The notes under the pieces were generated by a model. The model had not been told where the DNA came from. It did not search any database and saw only the letters and a list, made by a program, of their open reading frames with translations. DNA of 64,000 nucleotides from an uncultured Gemmatimonadales bacterium (GTDB lineage Bacteria > Gemmatimonadota > Gemmatimonadetes > Longimicrobiales > RSA9). Of this stretch, positions 26,824 through 36,708 are shown in pieces (the first letter of the stretch is position 1; every line of letters starts with the position of its first letter). The stretch is taken from the NCBI GenBank assembly GCA_963816355.1, contig CAWFKH010000001.1:32001-96000 (forward strand). Reading direction: 5' to 3'. Made by a program: the position numbers and the translations under genes.

Positions 26824-27361
26824 GGGACGGTACGGGCGCGCGCCCGCGCGTCGGCGCCTCCGGTCCCTGCTCCCGCGGGGGGCGTCCCGCCTTTCCGGCG
26901 CTCCGCCCCGGGGCGGCGTGGCCGCCACCGAACCGGCGCCCGCCCCGCCGCGGCACGCCGCCGGCCGGAAGATCCCATCCCTACTTGACATGGCGCCCCT
27001 CCCTCTTCACCTTTAGCGTCGATGGCGTGTCGTTCGCGGTGACGACCCGCCTCAACCGGAAAAGAGAATCAACCCGTTATCCTGTTCGGCTGTGCGACGT
27101 CAGCACCGCGGCCCCGGTGGGTCAGGCCCGGTCGCTCGACGGCCCCTCGCCTCTCCCCCGAGCGCGCCAGCACGCTTGCAGTGTACCACCCGGGTACGCC
27201 CAGTCCCGGACCAGTGCCGCGCGCGCGACCACAGTTATTTGAAACTATGGATTAGCCCCCTCGCTTGCGAGAGCGGAGCCACCAGCGGAGTCCTTCAGCG
27301 GAGCGCCGCAGCCCACCCTAGCGGATCCGGGCTGACGCAACCCGAAAGGAGGTGAGCTGAG

Positions 27362-27436
27362 TTGACGGCTTTCTTTGCCGCCCTTTTCGCTGGTTTCGCG
27401 AAGCTTCTTATGGCGGGTGTCACCATCATTCATTAA
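27362..27436 (+). CDS. unannotated 24-aa hydrophobic peptide MTAFFAALFAGFAKLLMAGVTIIH
   Basis: AAAGGAGGTGA SD at 27345-27355, 6 nt before TTG; TAA stop at 27434-27436. Confidence 0.7.
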   Translation: MTAFFAALFAGFAKLLMAGVTIIH

Positions 27437-27469
27437 GTGAGTGAGGGGGCTTTTCTTTCTTAAGACATC

Positions 27470-28805
27470 ATGCCAAAGAAGATCGCCCTACTCTTTGCTG
27501 CCGTAGTTGTCCTCGGCGCAGCATCGTTCTGGCCGTTGCCGCTTGCCGACATTGCGGCGCCTAAGCGGCACGGCGATGGGCGGCTTGTTGACGCTGACTG
27601 TCTTGGGGGTGCTGGCCGAGTTCCTTCCAGTTCAGTACAGTGTCGAAGGGCGCGAAGCGTCATCGTCCATCTCCTTCATCCCAATGTTCGTCATCGGACT
27701 GTCGTTCCATCCGACGACGACCGTATTGGCTACGGCGCTGATAATTGGGACAGCCTCTACGCTTGGCCATAAGCTCCCTGCTTGGAAGACGATATTCAAT
27801 GTTTGCCAAGTCGCTCTAGCTGTCCGCCTTGGTTCAGAGTTATACTATTATCTGTCCACTTCAACTCTGCCGATTCTACATTATGATGTAGTAGCACTTG
27901 CAGGTCTTTCGCTTACGTTCTTTATCACAAATACAGTACTCGTCTCCTTTTTCTATTCCATAGACCAATCGACTCCGTTTCTTCCAACGCTCAAACGAAT
28001 TGCCGGACCGGGTGGTTCCAATCTCTATTATGACCTTCTAGTTAGCCCTCTAGCTCTGCTCGTATCATACGTATATCGAAGCAGTGGCTTGAGTGGCGTA
28101 CTATTGTTAGTATTGCCACTTTACATCCTGCGCCATTCTTACGTCGCCATGCTGCAGCTCCAACAGGCGAATCGCGCCCTCCTGAAAGTATTGATCAAGG
28201 CCATTGACACGCGCGACCCTTATACGTCTGGTCATTCTCTCCGTGTATCACTCTTAGCCCGAGCGATAGCGGAGGACATGGGCGTTCGGGGGAGACGTCT
28301 CGATGATGTCGAGACGGCTGCTCTGTTGCACGACATTGGAAAGGTCGACGGAATATACGCGGAGTTGATTCGGAAGCCGCACGCTTTGTCCGCAGATGAA
28401 GTCAAAGTTATTCGAACACACGCGACAAAGGGAGCGGACTTCGTTGGCGGGCTAAGGACGTACAGCGACGGCATAGTTCTGAGTATCAGGCATCATCACG
28501 AAAAATATGATGGTTCAGGGTACCCAAATGGTCTTCGCGGCTCTGAGATCCCACTTGCGGCACGCATAATTCAGATTTCCGATAGCATTGACGCGATGCT
28601 TTCTGACAGGCCTTACCGATCTGCCCTGTCTCTTGAGCAGGTTCACACGGAGCTTAGGCGGTGCGCGGGAAGTCAGTTTGATCCAGGAATCGTGGACAAC
28701 ATGCTTGAGAGGGGATCCCTCACACGAATGCTGCCGACCCTCCGGCTTCATGGGGGCAAGACTGCAGCGGTTCTCCCGCGCATTGAAGCGTCAGCGGCTG
28801 TCTGA
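27470..28805 (+). CDS. membrane-sensor (MASE9-like multi-TM) HD-GYP cyclic-dinucleotide phosphodiesterase; +1 frameshift near 27560
   Basis: DPYTSGHS, LLHDIGK, HHEKYDGSGYPNGL, D.IDAM.SDRPYR, GSQFDP; first TM helix lies in the frame starting at ATG 27470. Confidence 0.88.
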
Positions 28806-28829
28806 TTCAGCTTACTTATAGGAGGCGCC

Positions 28830-29033
28830 GTGCAGACTAGACATTGTCCCTCCTGTGGCTCCGATCACTTGGAGCGCGCCACTTGCGGGCCGGCTGAGTT
28901 GCCGCTTGCGGACGGGAGTGCAATTCGCCTGCTAGTACTTGGATGCTTGAATTGTGGGCACGTTAGTCTATGGATCCCAGAGGCCGACGATGGAAGTGGC
29001 GCAAAGTCCTTGGGGAGTCAGTCATTCTTATAG
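28830..29033 (+). CDS. small Zn-ribbon protein
   Basis: CPSCGS...CLNCGH; SD AGGAGG before GTG. Confidence 0.7.
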   Translation: MQTRHCPSCGSDHLERATCGPAELPLADGSAIRLLVLGCLNCGHVSLWIPEADDGSGAKSLGSQSFL

Positions 29034-29451
29034 GCCTAGCGCAGCAGTTGTCAATGTCCTAGAAGATACGCTATCTGCTGGTGGTAAGTGCTTACCCGCT
29101 CAGATTGAGTACTTCCCGTCGAGCCGCTCCGGGGGTCAACTAGCAGACAGTCTATAAGTACTTCATCCAAAGAAGAATAGACGGGTCCCCAAATGGTCGG
29201 CCCGAGCGCGGCTCGGTGCAGATCGATCGTCCGGCACGGCGTTCCTCCACGAGGATCCGGAGCCAGTGCTACTTCAGGGCGGACGTACAAGGTTGCGAGA
29301 CTTCGTCCGGTCGATGAAGCCGCGCCTTTATCCGCGGCGTGAGGGAGCGTGTCGAGACGCTTCCCGGACAGCAGACGAGATCGACGTCTCGACTTCAGCG
29401 GCTGCCGTTGCCGGGCGGTGAGACCGGAGCCGTTCGTGCGTTTTCCCTTTC

Positions 29452-29480
29452 TTGACAGGAGCCCCGGGAGGCGGGAGATT
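29452..29480 (+). promoter_or_regulatory. sigma-70-type promoter of the R-M operon
   Basis: TTGACA-N17-GAGATT. Confidence 0.45.
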
Positions 29481-29522
29481 TGCAGACGCTGTCGCCCCTT
29501 GTTCCGACTGTCGAAATTGTAG

Positions 29523-29732
29523 ATGCCCACCGGCAAACGCCGCGTTGCGATCAACCTGCCTTACGGCGAATACGAGGAAATGGCCGCTATCGCGGACGAG
29601 CACAACGTCTCACTCGCGTGGCTAGGCGGCCAATTCATGGAACGCTACCGCGAGGAATCTTTGCAGCTTCCCCTTCCGCTTCGGACCAACAGAAGTTTAG
29701 AACGAGGACCGGGAGCACATGCCGCGCAGTGA
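29523..29732 (+). CDS. ribbon-helix-helix (CopG-like) regulator
   Basis: RVAINL beta ribbon, EYEEMAAIADEHNVSLAWLG helices; overlaps endonuclease start. Confidence 0.65.
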   Translation: MPTGKRRVAINLPYGEYEEMAAIADEHNVSLAWLGGQFMERYREESLQLPLPLRTNRSLERGPGAHAAQ

Positions 29733-31089
29733 TCTCCCCTTTGGCAGCGAGTTTTCGCCCGACCAGATTGATCTGGCCACGCTACTGGATCTCGCGCACC
29801 AGCACGGCGAGGACTGGAAAGGATTCGAGGCCGCCGTACGGGCGCGCTATTTCGAGAATTACAAGACGTCGGACTACAACAAGGACAAGCTCGCCAATAA
29901 CGCGAAGCTCTCGTTGCGCGCCTATGGCCTGATCGGCGCGAAGGATGCCACGCTGACGGAGGCCGGATTAGCTCTCCACGCTTTGCATCAGGATGAGAGG
30001 CTCCTGCTAGATGCGTTTGCCAAGCACATTTTAAAGCACTGCCAGGGTATGAACTTCGTGCAGTGCCTCCTCGATATGCAGGCGGCGGGCGAGAGGATCA
30101 CCCTCTTGAGCCTCCGCCGTGGTCTTGAGGAGCGGGGGCTTTCCGTGCCGCGCGGCGGGAAGCACATGAGCACGTTGCGGCTCTGGCTGGACCGGGCCGG
30201 TGTCATCGTAAGCGGCTACCGCGTGGATCAGGCCCGTCTCAACGATATCCTTGGCGTTAAAGTGGAGGAATTCGAGGCTCTGGCAAGCTTTTCGGGCGAG
30301 CAGAAAGCCTTTCTGAAGACGCTCGCGAACATGGAGGGTGGCCGGCCGCATCTGTCGAACGATATCGAGCGGCTTGCCACGGCGACCTACGGCATCACGT
30401 TCAACGAGAAGAACCTGCCCAAGCAGGTTTTGTATCCGCTGGAGAAGACGGGCTACATCGCGCTTGAACGCGGCACACAAGAGCCCGGGCGCGGCGCTAA
30501 GCCTTTTTTGGTGACGGCAACCGAGAAGCTCGATGCCGACCTGATTGCACCGCTCATTGCGCAGATGGAGCGCCAGATCCAGGCTGATATCCGGCCGCTG
30601 CTTCGCAAGCCGCTTTCAGAGATCTTGGAGGAGCTGACGGAGGAGGACGCGCACACACGCGGCCTTGCCCTCGAGGCTCTCGCCTTCAAGCTCATGAGGC
30701 TCGTCGACCTCACCTATGTCGCGACCCGTCTTCGAGGCAGCCAGACCGGAGGGGCGGAAGTCGATCTGATCTTTGAAGGCGCCCGTCTGGTGTTCTCCCG
30801 CTGGCAGATCCAATGCAAGAACACGCGGAGCGTGTCGCTGGACGATGTTGCCAAGGAAGTGGGGCTCACGCACTTCCTGAAAAGCAACGTGATCGTGATG
30901 GTCTCGACCGGGACGGTCGGCCCGGAGGCGCGCCGCTACGCCAACAAAATCATGCGGGACTCTAACCTGTGCATCGTCATGGTGGACGGTACCGACCTCG
31001 AGCTAATCGAGGAACGGCCGGCCGGAATTGTCGATGTCTTCAGCCGCGAGGCCCGTCATGCGATGGACCTAAAAAGGCTCGAACTATAA
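29719..31089 (+). CDS. restriction endonuclease with C-terminal Mrr-cat-like PD-(D/E)xK domain
   Basis: GLALE...EVDLIF...WQIQCKN; adjacent to a methyltransferase. Confidence 0.75.
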   Translation: MPRSDLPFGSEFSPDQIDLATLLDLAHQHGEDWKGFEAAVRARYFENYKTSDYNKDKLANNAKLSLRAYGLIGAKDATLTEAGLALHALHQDERLLLDAFAKHILKHCQGMNFVQCLLDMQAAGERITLLSLRRGLEERGLSVPRGGKHMSTLRLWLDRAGVIVSGYRVDQARLNDILGVKVEEFEALASFSGEQKAFLKTLANMEGGRPHLSNDIERLATATYGITFNEKNLPKQVLYPLEKTGYIALERGTQEPGRGAKPFLVTATEKLDADLIAPLIAQMERQIQADIRPLLRKPLSEILEELTEEDAHTRGLALEALAFKLMRLVDLTYVATRLRGSQTGGAEVDLIFEGARLVFSRWQIQCKNTRSVSLDDVAKEVGLTHFLKSNVIVMVSTGTVGPEARRYANKIMRDSNLCIVMVDGTDLELIEERPAGIVDVFSREARHAMDLKRLEL

Positions 31090-31105
31090 AGGGAAGGAAC
31101 AACGG

Positions 31106-32170
31106 ATGCCGCAGAACGGCGTGAACAGGGCTAAGCCGTTCCACACAACCGCGTTCGGGCGAATCATCTGCGGCGATAGCTTGCAGGCGCTGTCTGCCCG
31201 TGCAGAAGGCTCGGTTAATCTCATCATGACCAGCCCGCCCTTCGCGCTCGTGCGAAAGAAGGACTATGGAAACGTCGAAGCCAACCAGTATATAGACTGG
31301 TTTCGCCCGTTCGCGGGGGAGTTCAAGCGCGTCCTCACCAATAATGGCAGCCTCGTTATTGACATCGGCGGGTCCTGGAAGAGGGGCTATCCGACCCGAA
31401 ACCTGTATCACTTCAAGCTGCTTGTTATGTTGTGCGAGGAGTTCGGGTTTCATCTTGCGCAGGATTTCTACTGGTGGAATCCGTCAAAGCTCCCGACGCC
31501 AGCAGAGTGGGTAAATATCCGCCGCATCCGGGTTAAGGATGCGATCAACACAATCTGGTGGTTATCGAAAACGCCTTGGCCGAAGGCCAGCAACCGGCGA
31601 GTCCTACAGCCTTACAGCGACAGTATGCAGGATCTTCTCGAAAGAGGCTATAAGGCGAAGAAGCGCCCATCCGGGCACGACATCAGTGAGAAATTTAGCA
31701 TCAACAATGGAGCGGCGATCCCGCCCAACCTGATCGCCATACCCAACACGGAAAGCAACAGCTTTTATCTGCGCTACTGTGAGGAGAACGGCCTAAAGCC
31801 CCACCCAGCGCGGTTTCCAACGGATCTACCAGAGTATTTCATTCGGATGCTGACAGACCCGGGCGACTTGGTCGTGGATCCGTTCGCAGGAAGTTGCGTC
31901 ACCGGCGAAGTGTCGGAGCGCCTTCAGAGAGAGTGGGAGTGCATTGAGCTTCTGCCGGCGTATTGCGAGGCTGCCCTTGGACGTTTTATTCGCCCTGCCG
32001 AAGAAACGGCGCGACCTGACCGGAACCCCGGCGACCCTTCCAACTACTATCGCATGCCGCATCCGGGCATTCTTGTGGAACGGCAACACCGGCGCGCCTC
32101 TTCACGAGGATGGTGGGAGGAGGCGCCGCCTCGAGTCGAAGGCGAAGGGAAAGAACGGCAAGGCGAGCAC
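31106..32170 (+). CDS. site-specific N4-cytosine DNA methyltransferase (beta class, M.PvuII-like); 3' end uncertain
   Basis: TSPPF, NPSKLP.P.EWVN.R.IRVKDA.N, RPSGHDI, HPARFP, DPFAGS; probable indel near 32073 and poly-C after it. Confidence 0.88.
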
Positions 32171-32563: not shown

Positions 32564-34006
32564 CTATGGGACGCGGAGGGATAGCGCCCGGTACCCTGTG
32601 GCGGCGTCGTGGTCGGCGGGGTGGTGGCGGTCGTGGATGCGGCGGAGGCCGGCGGTCCAGACGTGGCGGACGACGTCGGTGCCGGCGCAGAGGGTAAGGA
32701 GGGCGGGGAGGGAGTCGGGGTCCCAGCCGGCGAGGGTGGGGTGGTGGAGGTCGATGGCGACGAGGTCGGCGGGCTGGCCGGCGGCGATGGCGGTGGCGCC
32801 GGCGGCGAGGGCGGCGGCGCCGGCGGCGGTGCCCATCTCGAGGAGGCGCGGGGCCACCTCGGCGCGGGGGAGGCGACCGGGGTGGGGCGGGGGCTCGGGG
32901 CGGGCGAGGACGACGCGGCGCAGGGTGCGGAGGCGCTCGTGGCATTCGACGAGGCGCATCTCCTCGAGGGGGTCGATGCGGGTCTGGCTGTCGCTGCCGA
33001 GGGCGATGGGGACGCCGGCGCGGACGAGGTCGGAGGCGGGGAGGAAGCCGTCGCCGAGGTCGCGTTCGGTGGAGGGGCAGGCGCAGACGGTGGCGCCGGT
33101 GCTGGCGAGGAGGCGGATCTCGGCGGCGTCGGCGTGGGTGGCGTGGACGGCGGTGAAGCGTGCGTCGAGGAGTCCCTCGTCGGCGAGGAGCTGGAGGGGG
33201 CGGAGGCGGTGGGCGTGGAGGCACGCGGCGACCTCGGCGGGCTGCTCGTCGGCGTGGGCGTGGCAGACGGCGTCGCGCGCGCGGGCCCAGTCGGCGAGCG
33301 GGCGCAGCCACGGGCGGGGGACGGCGCGCACGCTGTGGGGCGCGACGCCGACGGTGACGAGGGGCCGGCCGCGCGCGCGGTCGCGGAGCGTGTCGACGCC
33401 GGCGAGGAAGGCGTCGAGGTCTGGGGTGGCGAACCTGCGCTGCGCGCCGGCGAGGGGGGTGTCGAAGCCGCCGGTGGCGTAGCACGCGTCGAGGAGCACG
33501 ATGCGGAGGCCGACGTCCTCGGCGGCGGCGATCACGCGCGCGGCCAGCTCGACGGGGTCGTCGTAGGGCGCGCCGGCGGGGTCGCGGTGCAGGTAGTGGA
33601 ACTCGCCGACGGTGGTGATGCCGGCGTGGAGCATCTCGAGGAAGCAGAAGCGGGAGGCGGTCTCGAGGTCGTCGGGCGAGAGCGCCAGGGCGGCGCGGTA
33701 CATGGCGTCGCGCCAGCTCCAGAAGTCGGCGGCGTCTTCGCCGGCGGGCCGCCACTGGGTGCGGCCGCGGATGAGGCGCTGGAAGGCGTGGGAGTGGGCG
33801 TTGACGAAGCCGGCGACGAGGGCGCAGCCGGGGAGGCGCTCGACGGCCGCGTCGGGGAAGGGCGGCGCGGCGGCGCGGCGGTCGAGCAGGGGCGCGGCGG
33901 GGGCGACGGCGCGGATCGCGCCGTCCTCGATGGCGACGGCGAGGCCGGCGGCGAAGGCGCCGGCGGTGTAGACGAGGTCCGGGACGAGGATGCGCGGGCC
34001 GCTCAC
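32564..34006 (-). CDS. hutF: formimidoylglutamate deiminase
   Basis: NAHSHAFQR, DFWSWR..MY, GEFHYLH, PHSVRA, CPSTERDLGDG, GSDSQ. Confidence 0.9.
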   Translation of the reverse strand: MSGPRILVPDLVYTAGAFAAGLAVAIEDGAIRAVAPAAPLLDRRAAAPPFPDAAVERLPGCALVAGFVNAHSHAFQRLIRGRTQWRPAGEDAADFWSWRDAMYRAALALSPDDLETASRFCFLEMLHAGITTVGEFHYLHRDPAGAPYDDPVELAARVIAAAEDVGLRIVLLDACYATGGFDTPLAGAQRRFATPDLDAFLAGVDTLRDRARGRPLVTVGVAPHSVRAVPRPWLRPLADWARARDAVCHAHADEQPAEVAACLHAHRLRPLQLLADEGLLDARFTAVHATHADAAEIRLLASTGATVCACPSTERDLGDGFLPASDLVRAGVPIALGSDSQTRIDPLEEMRLVECHERLRTLRRVVLARPEPPPHPGRLPRAEVAPRLLEMGTAAGAAALAAGATAIAAGQPADLVAIDLHHPTLAGWDPDSLPALLTLCAGTDVVRHVWTAGLRRIHDRHHPADHDAATGYRALSLRVP

Positions 34007-34037
34007 GGTCGTGGTGGGGGGCGGGTGGCGGCGCGTC

Positions 34038-34670
34038 TCAGGCGCCGTCCATCTCGGCGACGGTCTCAATGACCTTGCCGACGAGGCCGTAGTCGCGGGC
34101 GGCGGCGGCGTCGAGCCAGAAGTTGCGGTGGGTGTCGTCCTCGATCTTCTCGAGCGGCTGGCCGGTGCGCTCGGCGAAGAGGCGGTTGAGGCGCTCGCGC
34201 ATGCGCAGGATCTCGCGAGCCTCGATCTCGACGTCGGCGGCGGTGCCGCGGGTGCCGCCGGCGGGCTGGTGCAGCAGGAAGCGCGTGTTGGGGAGCGAGA
34301 AGCGGCGCTCGCGCGGCACGGCGACGAAGATGAGGGCGCCGGCGCTGGCCACCCAGCCGGTGCCGACCATGCGGACGGGCGCGTCGATGAAGCGGATGAC
34401 GTCGTGGATCGTGTCGCCGGACTCGACGTGGCCGCCCTGCGAGTTGATGAAGATGGTGATCGGCTGGTCGGACTCCGCGGACATGGCGAGGAGCTGCCCC
34501 ATCACGTCCGCCGCCAGCTTCTGGTTGACCTCGCCGCTGATGATGAGCGTGCGCGAGCGGAAGAGCCGGTCCTTCACGCGGTCCGTCAGCGCGGCCACGG
34601 TCGGCCGCTCGCGCTCCTCCGGCTCCTCCCAGCCCTCGTCCGGATCCTGCGGCACCCTGCGGTCCTTCAT
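34038..34670 (-). CDS. clpP: ATP-dependent Clp protease proteolytic subunit
   Basis: INSQGG, VASAG (Ser), LHQP (His), DTHRNFWL. Confidence 0.9.
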   Translation of the reverse strand: MKDRRVPQDPDEGWEEPEERERPTVAALTDRVKDRLFRSRTLIISGEVNQKLAADVMGQLLAMSAESDQPITIFINSQGGHVESGDTIHDVIRFIDAPVRMVGTGWVASAGALIFVAVPRERRFSLPNTRFLLHQPAGGTRGTAADVEIEAREILRMRERLNRLFAERTGQPLEKIEDDTHRNFWLDAAAARDYGLVGKVIETVAEMDGA

Positions 34671-34726
34671 CGCATCCCGATCCACTTGCGGCTCCTTGCG
34701 TTGTCTCGTGATCGCCGCGCTGCCGC

Positions 34727-36487
<1,761 letters not shown>

Positions 36488-36708
36488 CGCTCTCCTCCGT
36501 TCGCTCGGCCCCCCGTGAGAATGCGCGCTCGCCGCCCATTCCTCAAGTGAGGCGGGGCCGCGGGGCGGCGCCACTGCCGTTCCGGCAGTCCCCGGCGCCG
36601 CGGCCGCCGGTTCCCGCCATTGTGGCACCGGAATTCCCGATTTCCAATGCTTGTTTGAACATGCGGAAGTCCAGGCAACACAAGGGGATCCGGGGGGTAT
36701 TCAGTGCG

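Follow-up and report, generated by a model that had tools for sequence, protein, structure and literature searches.

Introduction

Small proteins can modulate membrane sensors, as MgrB does with PhoQ. In the agr system (AgrD–AgrB–AgrC), an amphipathic leader with a variable tail is found together with an adjoining multi-pass sensor, and these parts vary as a block. In uORF leaders, the upstream open reading frame (ORF) ends beside a helix involving part of the initiation region of the downstream frame, and unmasking of this region couples translation of the two frames.

The described proteins closest to the sensor studied here are T. maritima TM1467 and S. venezuelae HdgA, which show the same MASE9–HD-GYP pair, the same aromatic and Asn/Ser positions and the RxY[K/R] motif (10.1101/2021.11.05.467447, PMC6205966). 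This motif has been linked to c-di-GMP specificity, and ligand binding within the membrane has been proposed for MASE9, the sensor input of which is not known (10.1101/2021.11.05.467447). HdgA is membrane-bound and weakly expressed; hdgA mutants of S. venezuelae have no phenotype, for which the authors blame a missing activating signal (PMC6205966). The accessible portions of the two accounts describe no ligand, micro-ORF or RNA leader (10.1101/2021.11.05.467447, PMC6205966), and neither 'peptide' nor 'upstream' occurs in the main text of the former (10.1101/2021.11.05.467447).

Here we analysed a 64,000-nucleotide stretch of DNA from an uncultured member of the Gemmatimonadota (hereafter the window; features lie on its plus strand unless stated otherwise), in which the original prediction had placed a hidden 24-residue hydrophobic peptide in front of a membrane HD-GYP sensor. 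The module resembles MgrB–PhoQ in that a tiny hydrophobic protein is predicted, on the basis of models, to bind and tune a membrane sensor. Unlike MgrB–PhoQ, its peptide is cis-encoded and allele-matched, with the pattern of an amphipathic helix and not of a plain transmembrane segment, and its output is a predicted c-di-GMP phosphodiesterase rather than a kinase. It shares with agr an amphipathic leader and a variable tail beside a multi-pass sensor, together with block variation, but it has neither a thiolactone Cys, an AgrD match nor a kinase; its receptor is a MASE9–HD-GYP protein, no linked processing gene was found in the phylum, and the pocket is likely cytoplasmic. As in uORF coupling, the micro-ORF ends next to a helix, P1, that precedes the sensor start; unlike in uORF coupling, the micro-ORF product is under selection and is predicted by modelling to bind the downstream product. 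There is also a likeness to C. difficile, in which riboswitch-controlled small membrane-associated proteins are tied to c-di-GMP; those proteins, however, act downstream of the c-di-GMP riboswitches, exceed the present peptide in length (their helix 4 covers residues 40–57) and, in the accessible part of that account, have no described HD-GYP partnership (PMC13724677). Our search, which left most of the subscription literature outside, found no published description of a peptide–MASE9–HD-GYP module, and the portions of PMC8632094 and one supplement that were accessible contain no matching terms.

Results and Discussion

A conserved micro-ORF precedes MASE9–HD-GYP genes

A strong 11-nt Shine–Dalgarno (SD) sequence at 27345–27355, conserved in alignment A6, is followed after a 6-nt spacer by a TTG codon at 27362, which opens a 24-codon gene (27362–27436) with its TAA ending at 27436; all these elements are present as originally described. 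The product is a hydrophobic peptide with an amphipathic helix, a conserved Gly and a variable five-residue tail. The ATG codon at 27470 indeed stands 33 nt past the micro-ORF stop, but its frame differs from the one at 27507–28805 that encodes MASE9 and HD-GYP, a departure from the original description.

We selected 117 loci of the phylum on the sensor score or across families among the matches listed, and never on the peptide. Three of them have no upstream DNA; the remaining 114 include the window and one duplicate. A filter for SD-led hydrophobic ORFs of 13–40 residues whose end lies no more than 110 nt from the sensor was passed by 111 of these 114 loci, the exceptions being L140, L141 (which a contig start cuts) and L185. 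Of 2884 genes called roughly in the source genome, 55 passed the same filter, as did 0 of 12 non-MASE9 HD-GYP controls in relatives and 2 of 51 such controls in other phyla. The unpublished genomes G016 and G019 contribute two of the 114 loci and rows in alignments A1 and A2, and G015 and G026 are among the control loci; no conclusion rests on any of the four. Among 20 MASE9-like loci of other phyla, nine passed, L003 via a wrong ORF. Inspection located the peptide at L001, L003 and L012, and gave no clear micro-ORF peptide at L014, L037 and the Kribbella loci. The micro-ORF thus recurs before MASE9 genes in Firmicutes and Actinomycetota, and the upstream ORF anticipated at homologous loci is a genuine, conserved and unannotated gene.

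Sequence comparison revealed that selection acts on its product. Across 31 disjoint pairs picked by HD-GYP identity and aligned under protein guidance, the core had a dN/dS of 0.33 and the tail (the last five residues) one of 0.31, in keeping with the purifying selection for which a dN/dS test had been suggested; the tail gave no sign of positive selection, and dS is higher there. Changes at the first, second and third codon positions of the micro-ORF numbered 222, 146 and 332, respectively. Amphipathicity exceeded that of shuffled sequences in 96 of 98 peptides. The following counts refer to 106 loci, obtained after dropping one duplicate, two loci with short flanks and two with miscalled starts: a Gly lies 3–8 residues before the peptide end in 96, and a Trp is found within the last three residues in 73.

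The sensor and its predicted fold

The sensor gene (27470–28805) carries a Pfam MASE9 (PF20972) match at 27723–28127, scoring 28.4 bits against a cut-off of 24.3 (30.3 bits in the genome-wide profile search), and an HD-GYP catalytic domain at 28185–28688, with an HD_5 match in the sensor frame at E 3e-30. The motifs LHDIGK, HHE..DG.GYP and RPYR are present and invariant across 63 aligned proteins, so motif alignment and profile score together confirm the MASE9 domain and the intact HD and GYP motifs that had been noted. From its sequence, the protein is a predicted c-di-GMP phosphodiesterase. The source genome has 13 GGDEF matches, and c-di-GMP signalling is therefore likely present in this organism.

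The MASE9 part of an ortholog, L221, which is 29% identical to that of the window, was predicted with a pLDDT of 93.6. Comparison of this model with 48,161 chains returned ECF S-components as all of the top 14 matches (Z 10.5–14.3; the next match had Z 7.9), the best of them with Z 14.3 and an rmsd of 2.9 over 159 aligned residues. MASE9 is thus predicted to adopt an ECF S-component-like fold, the same as that of RibU (5kbw), FolT (5d0y) and NikM (4m5c). It differs from these proteins in its low identity to them (8–15%), an extra C-terminal helix running into the enzyme, a probable inversion in the membrane and a putative peptide ligand. None of the solved structures is related in sequence to MASE9 or to the upstream partner protein described below.

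Co-folding of the L221 MASE9 domain with its own 31-residue peptide gave a score of 0.61; of three controls, which were unrelated proteins rather than non-cognate peptides, the best reached 0.00. The mark applied is reached by 116 of 157 solved pairs and 2 of 215 mismatched pairs, figures that are a rough guide because custom alignments were used here. At least 96% of contacts were shared between runs, and the partner had a pLDDT of at least 74. In this model, the contacts fall on the peptide tail (residues 23–31), which we take to fill the region matching the ligand pocket of ECF S-components. The contact residues, 37 out of 245, include seven of the 15 MASE9 columns with the highest conservation, and all seven are kept in the window. 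The co-folding that had been put forward as a check thus came out positively for an ortholog pair; the models support binding of the peptide to MASE9, the case for the window's own peptide resting on that ortholog.

The peptide tail varies with the sensor

In 35 disjoint pairs picked by leader identity, tail similarity followed MASE9 identity with a partial rho of 0.57 (p 3e-4), controlled for HD-GYP and leader, in line with the co-variation check proposed at the outset. In a set of 36 pairs chosen by HD-GYP, the tail (0.40, p 0.017) and the peptide core (0.37) gave nearly equal values. Within one genus, the peptide core hardly varies, and MASE9 identity is 83%–88% between loci whose tails are alike; L162 and L169, with 98% identical leaders and 92% identical HD-GYP domains, have unlike tails and 69% MASE9 identity. 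A single soil-metagenome contig (depth 5) is identical to the window over 27142–27423, that is, 282 nt covering the leader and 20 codons, and then runs into another in-frame tail and another P1 arm, with the pairing kept. The tail and MASE9 are adjacent, so block exchange alone would yield such co-variation with no need for binding. Contact column 172 is the column best associated with the tail Trp, a signal carried mostly by one clade.

Orientation of the pocket

ECF S-components have an outward-facing pocket, and their membrane topology served as the reference for orienting MASE9. The loops on the pocket side carry 1.3–3.4 Lys/Arg, and the opposite loops about 0.5; both termini are Lys/Arg-rich as well. 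Given these loops and termini, and since the C-terminus must reach the cytoplasmic enzyme, the modelled pocket likely opens to the cytoplasm, inverted relative to ECF S-components. This orientation speaks for an internal ligand made together with the sensor rather than for a secreted pheromone, and the suggestion that the peptide is a signal precursor has accordingly lost ground.

A pheromone precursor of the agr/ComX kind would use the helix as a leader and release the tail after the Gly to the outside, its alleles being pherotypes. The conserved core, the Gly, the variable tail with its frequent terminal Trp and the allele-like swaps with the sensor all fit such a precursor, and a DUF5317 membrane protein, encoded downstream in four of the four Firmicutes and Actinomycetota loci scanned, could process it. 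Against it stand the predicted position of the pocket on the Lys/Arg-rich cytoplasmic side, the absence of DUF5317 from 151 of 151 phylum genomes searched and the lack of a conserved exporter or peptidase beside eight long family loci. Moreover, Pfam and NCBIfam hold no family that describes the 66 peptides compared and gave no AgrD-type match, and Cys makes up 0.6% of peptide residues. We consider a pheromone unlikely.

Two loci show a different arrangement: a tandem pair of membrane HD-domain genes follows one micro-ORF in L004 (1983–4570), where DUF5317 comes next, and in L012 (2887–5442). In the Bacillota locus L029 (1674–1805), a 43-residue SD-led peptide, which presumably resembles AgrD-type precursors, precedes a membrane HD-GYP gene of the non-MASE9 type and may constitute a second peptide input to c-di-GMP turnover.

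A conserved RNA leader encloses the micro-ORF

The original prediction did not mention a conserved RNA layout, which consists of a long-range helix P1, AGCG(G/A)A repeats and a covarying hairpin P2. To form P1, sequence some 120 nt ahead of the micro-ORF pairs with sequence past its stop; in the window fold the arms of P1 lie at 27254–27268 and 27437–27451, the latter directly after the stop codon and before the SD-less sensor start. Over 106 loci, own P1 arms scored 31.5 and swapped arms 22.3 (sd 5.3); a locus's own arm ranked strictly first in only 22 and among the top five in 53; the score was higher on the sense strand in 62 loci and on the antisense strand in 33. In L126, the C-run and the G-run of P1 have traded sides. 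Folded by itself, the window leader is no more stable than its shuffles (z −1.13). Hairpin P2 (27307–27337), with an invariant bulged A at 27335, shows compensatory changes in eight of eight pairs, with 89.6% of cells paired in 35 sequences; this covariation was reached in 0 of 500 shuffles and is far above that of slid controls.

Three AGCGGAG repeats (27272, 27284 and 27297, together spanning 27272–27303) are candidate protein-binding sites, and the P2 loop contains a fourth copy, AGCGGA, at 27320. Of 106 leaders, 103 have two to five AGCG(G/A)A repeats, with any copy at all on the reverse strand in 2 of 106; the repeats and the overall layout are also seen in low-GC Firmicutes leaders. Searched with the covariance models of Rfam, including those of c-di-GMP riboswitches, 12 loci yielded no match with an E of 1 or less, and the leader thus adds an RNA motif that Rfam lacks. 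A promoter and terminator scan stayed at chance level.

Three candidate explanations were set aside. CsrA/RsmA, as the reader of the repeats, has no match in the genome (97.5% complete), and the repeat cores vary between GGA and GAA; a role of the P1 G-run as the sensor's own SD is not general, given the C-run in L126 and several other loci, though some loci could use it; and an apparent second copy of the RNA in the genome (E 0.009) sits within a coding gene. The leader word AGCGGAG also occurs in a tandem array of a 22-bp unit at ~26900–27080 of C5 in the source genome, and the segment 26578–26830 of the window, between an ABC permease gene and the leader, is GC-rich and repeat-like.

The repeats may bind a regulator, most likely a protein encoded upstream. 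A gene of unassigned function (~210–330 residues) lies upstream of the module in 90 of 106 phylum loci, with homologues upstream in Firmicutes loci as well, and its conserved product is the likely reader of the RNA motif. An Atlas search with this partner returned unnamed clusters only. Two partner homologues in the source genome, at L237 (1471–2244) and L238 (~1500–1970), are not followed by a micro-ORF and a sensor in the stretches read.

P1 begins a median of 6 nt past the peptide stop and ends a median of 10 nt before the sensor ATG (106 loci), and in 92 of the 106 no SD stands ahead of the sensor start. A helix between the stop and a usually SD-less start suggests translational coupling, in which a ribosome reaching the end of the micro-ORF would unfold P1 and thereby allow the sensor to be translated. 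The same geometry, with P1 enclosing the ORF and the layout kept from the phylum to Firmicutes, would suit a mere leader, in which translation of the ORF opens P1 and so controls expression of the sensor, whatever peptide it yields. Two Tepidibacillus loci, L073 (2156–2236) and L077 (2610–2684), add to this reading: they keep the enclosing helix and the upstream partner, with a micro-ORF that is basic, not hydrophobic, and has a Trp near its end. However, a dN/dS of about 0.3, the amphipathic periodicity, the Gly and Trp, the co-variation and the co-fold point to selection on the product, which renders a mere leader quite improbable. A membrane-active peptide akin to type I toxins, kept silent by RNA structure and unrelated to the sensor, would likewise be a short amphipathic helix with a strong SD in a structured leader, and one of the 66 peptides matches TisB, weakly (E 0.024). 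Its fixed place before MASE9 genes across phyla, together with the sensor co-variation, the co-fold and an RNA model that found no convincing second copy in the genome, speaks so strongly against such a toxin that we give it hardly any weight.

A putative model for the module

Conservation, purifying selection, tail–sensor co-variation and the ortholog co-fold together favour the part of the original prediction that saw the peptide as a membrane ligand or modulator. We propose, with a probability of roughly 0.6, that the peptide is a co-made, allele-matched ligand of MASE9 at the inner membrane face that sets phosphodiesterase activity, and that the RNA couples the two genes. In this putative model, the peptide would rest against the membrane from the inside, its variable tail reaching into the MASE9 pocket that likely opens to the cytoplasm; occupancy of the pocket would then determine how active the attached enzyme, a predicted c-di-GMP phosphodiesterase, is. 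With coupling, the sensor would never be made without its peptide. The coupled order and the much stronger SD of the peptide fit a stoichiometric plug holding the enzyme inactive, to which we lean by a narrow margin over an activator.

If it is a ligand, the peptide would be the first for a MASE9 sensor, and the present analysis supplies a named candidate, a predicted pocket and residues to mutate, among them the pocket residues Asn105 and Asn161 (L221 numbering), with matched and mismatched allele pairs of MASE9 now at hand. If true, the model would also give a concealed micro-gene a direct part in c-di-GMP turnover, both in roughly half the genomes of a phylum common in soil and in Firmicutes and Actinomycetota. 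A broader version is tentative and, to our mind, rather doubtful: a cross-phylum lock-and-key c-di-GMP switch, in which a leader read by a dedicated protein would meter the micropeptide, its allele-specific tail would plug the inverted S-component pocket fused to the phosphodiesterase, and blocks of tail and sensor exchanged among strains would make up self-recognition types.

Distribution of the module and state of the window's copy

The sensor N-terminal profile matches 194 of 401 phylum genomes and 29 of 73 family genomes, nearly always once. In the source genome, the copy in the window is the only MASE9 match. As assembled, its reading frame is not intact: translation from ATG 27470 gives a 100-residue product lacking the MASE9 and HD-GYP domains. 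The first ~30 residues from this ATG align with ortholog N-termini and the alignment resumes one frame over, which places a +1 frameshift at ~27555–27566. None of the metagenome reads and contigs searched spans this frameshift or the one in a neighbouring methyltransferase gene, and the N-terminal part of the sensor matched no plasmid.

The sensor frameshift is either real or an assembly error, and the copy here may be inactive. For this copy only, a displaced and decaying cassette, with a real frameshift and a peptide left without an intact sensor, is a serious possibility that we place somewhat below even. Two +1 frameshifts, the second near 32073 in the methyltransferase gene, the loss of the module's customary upstream and downstream neighbours, and the lack of another MASE9 match in the genome are consistent with decay, as is the finding of central frameshifts in 0 of 41 other places of the genome (36 kb), a test that breaks near gene ends escape. 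On the other hand, both frames are stop-free and in register with the orthologs, all pocket and catalytic residues are kept, and two single-base insertions in a strain-variable stretch would equally fit poor polishing.

The upstream partner gene is absent beside the window's module, the two homologues named above lying elsewhere in the genome, and the copy groups with L119 and L128, which likewise have no upstream gene. A STAND/BTAD regulator lies downstream in five of eight long family loci; in the source genome, a STAND/BTAD regulator and an AraC-like gene, similar to those downstream of the sensor in relatives, form a divergent pair at ~439300–442300 of C1, far from the module. At the closest relative, L230 (10800–16000), the module adjoins defence-like genes, including an ATPase and what we take to be methyltransferase-like and Vsr-like ORFs, suggesting that this sub-lineage sits at variable sites.

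The proposal that the module is a cassette on an acquired island stands in part. Its usual neighbours are missing and a restriction–modification pair adjoins it, and GC is 55%–61% over ~27000–32100 against ~74%. However, sensor GC is below that of its own upstream DNA in 104 of 106 loci, so that low GC, being family-wide, is no proof of foreign origin by itself, and the sensor is widespread in the phylum. The longest flanking direct repeat is 11 nt, and the ORFs scanned include no integrase. Directly after the sensor, an SD-led ORF of 67 residues (28830–29033) has two CxxC motifs and weak zinc-ribbon matches only. The low-GC segment 29523–32160 that follows holds a ribbon–helix–helix-like ORF, an Mrr-type endonuclease and the N4/N6 methyltransferase with the second frameshift. 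Further downstream, the minus strand at 32564–36628 carries what appears to be a histidine-utilisation cluster together with ClpP.
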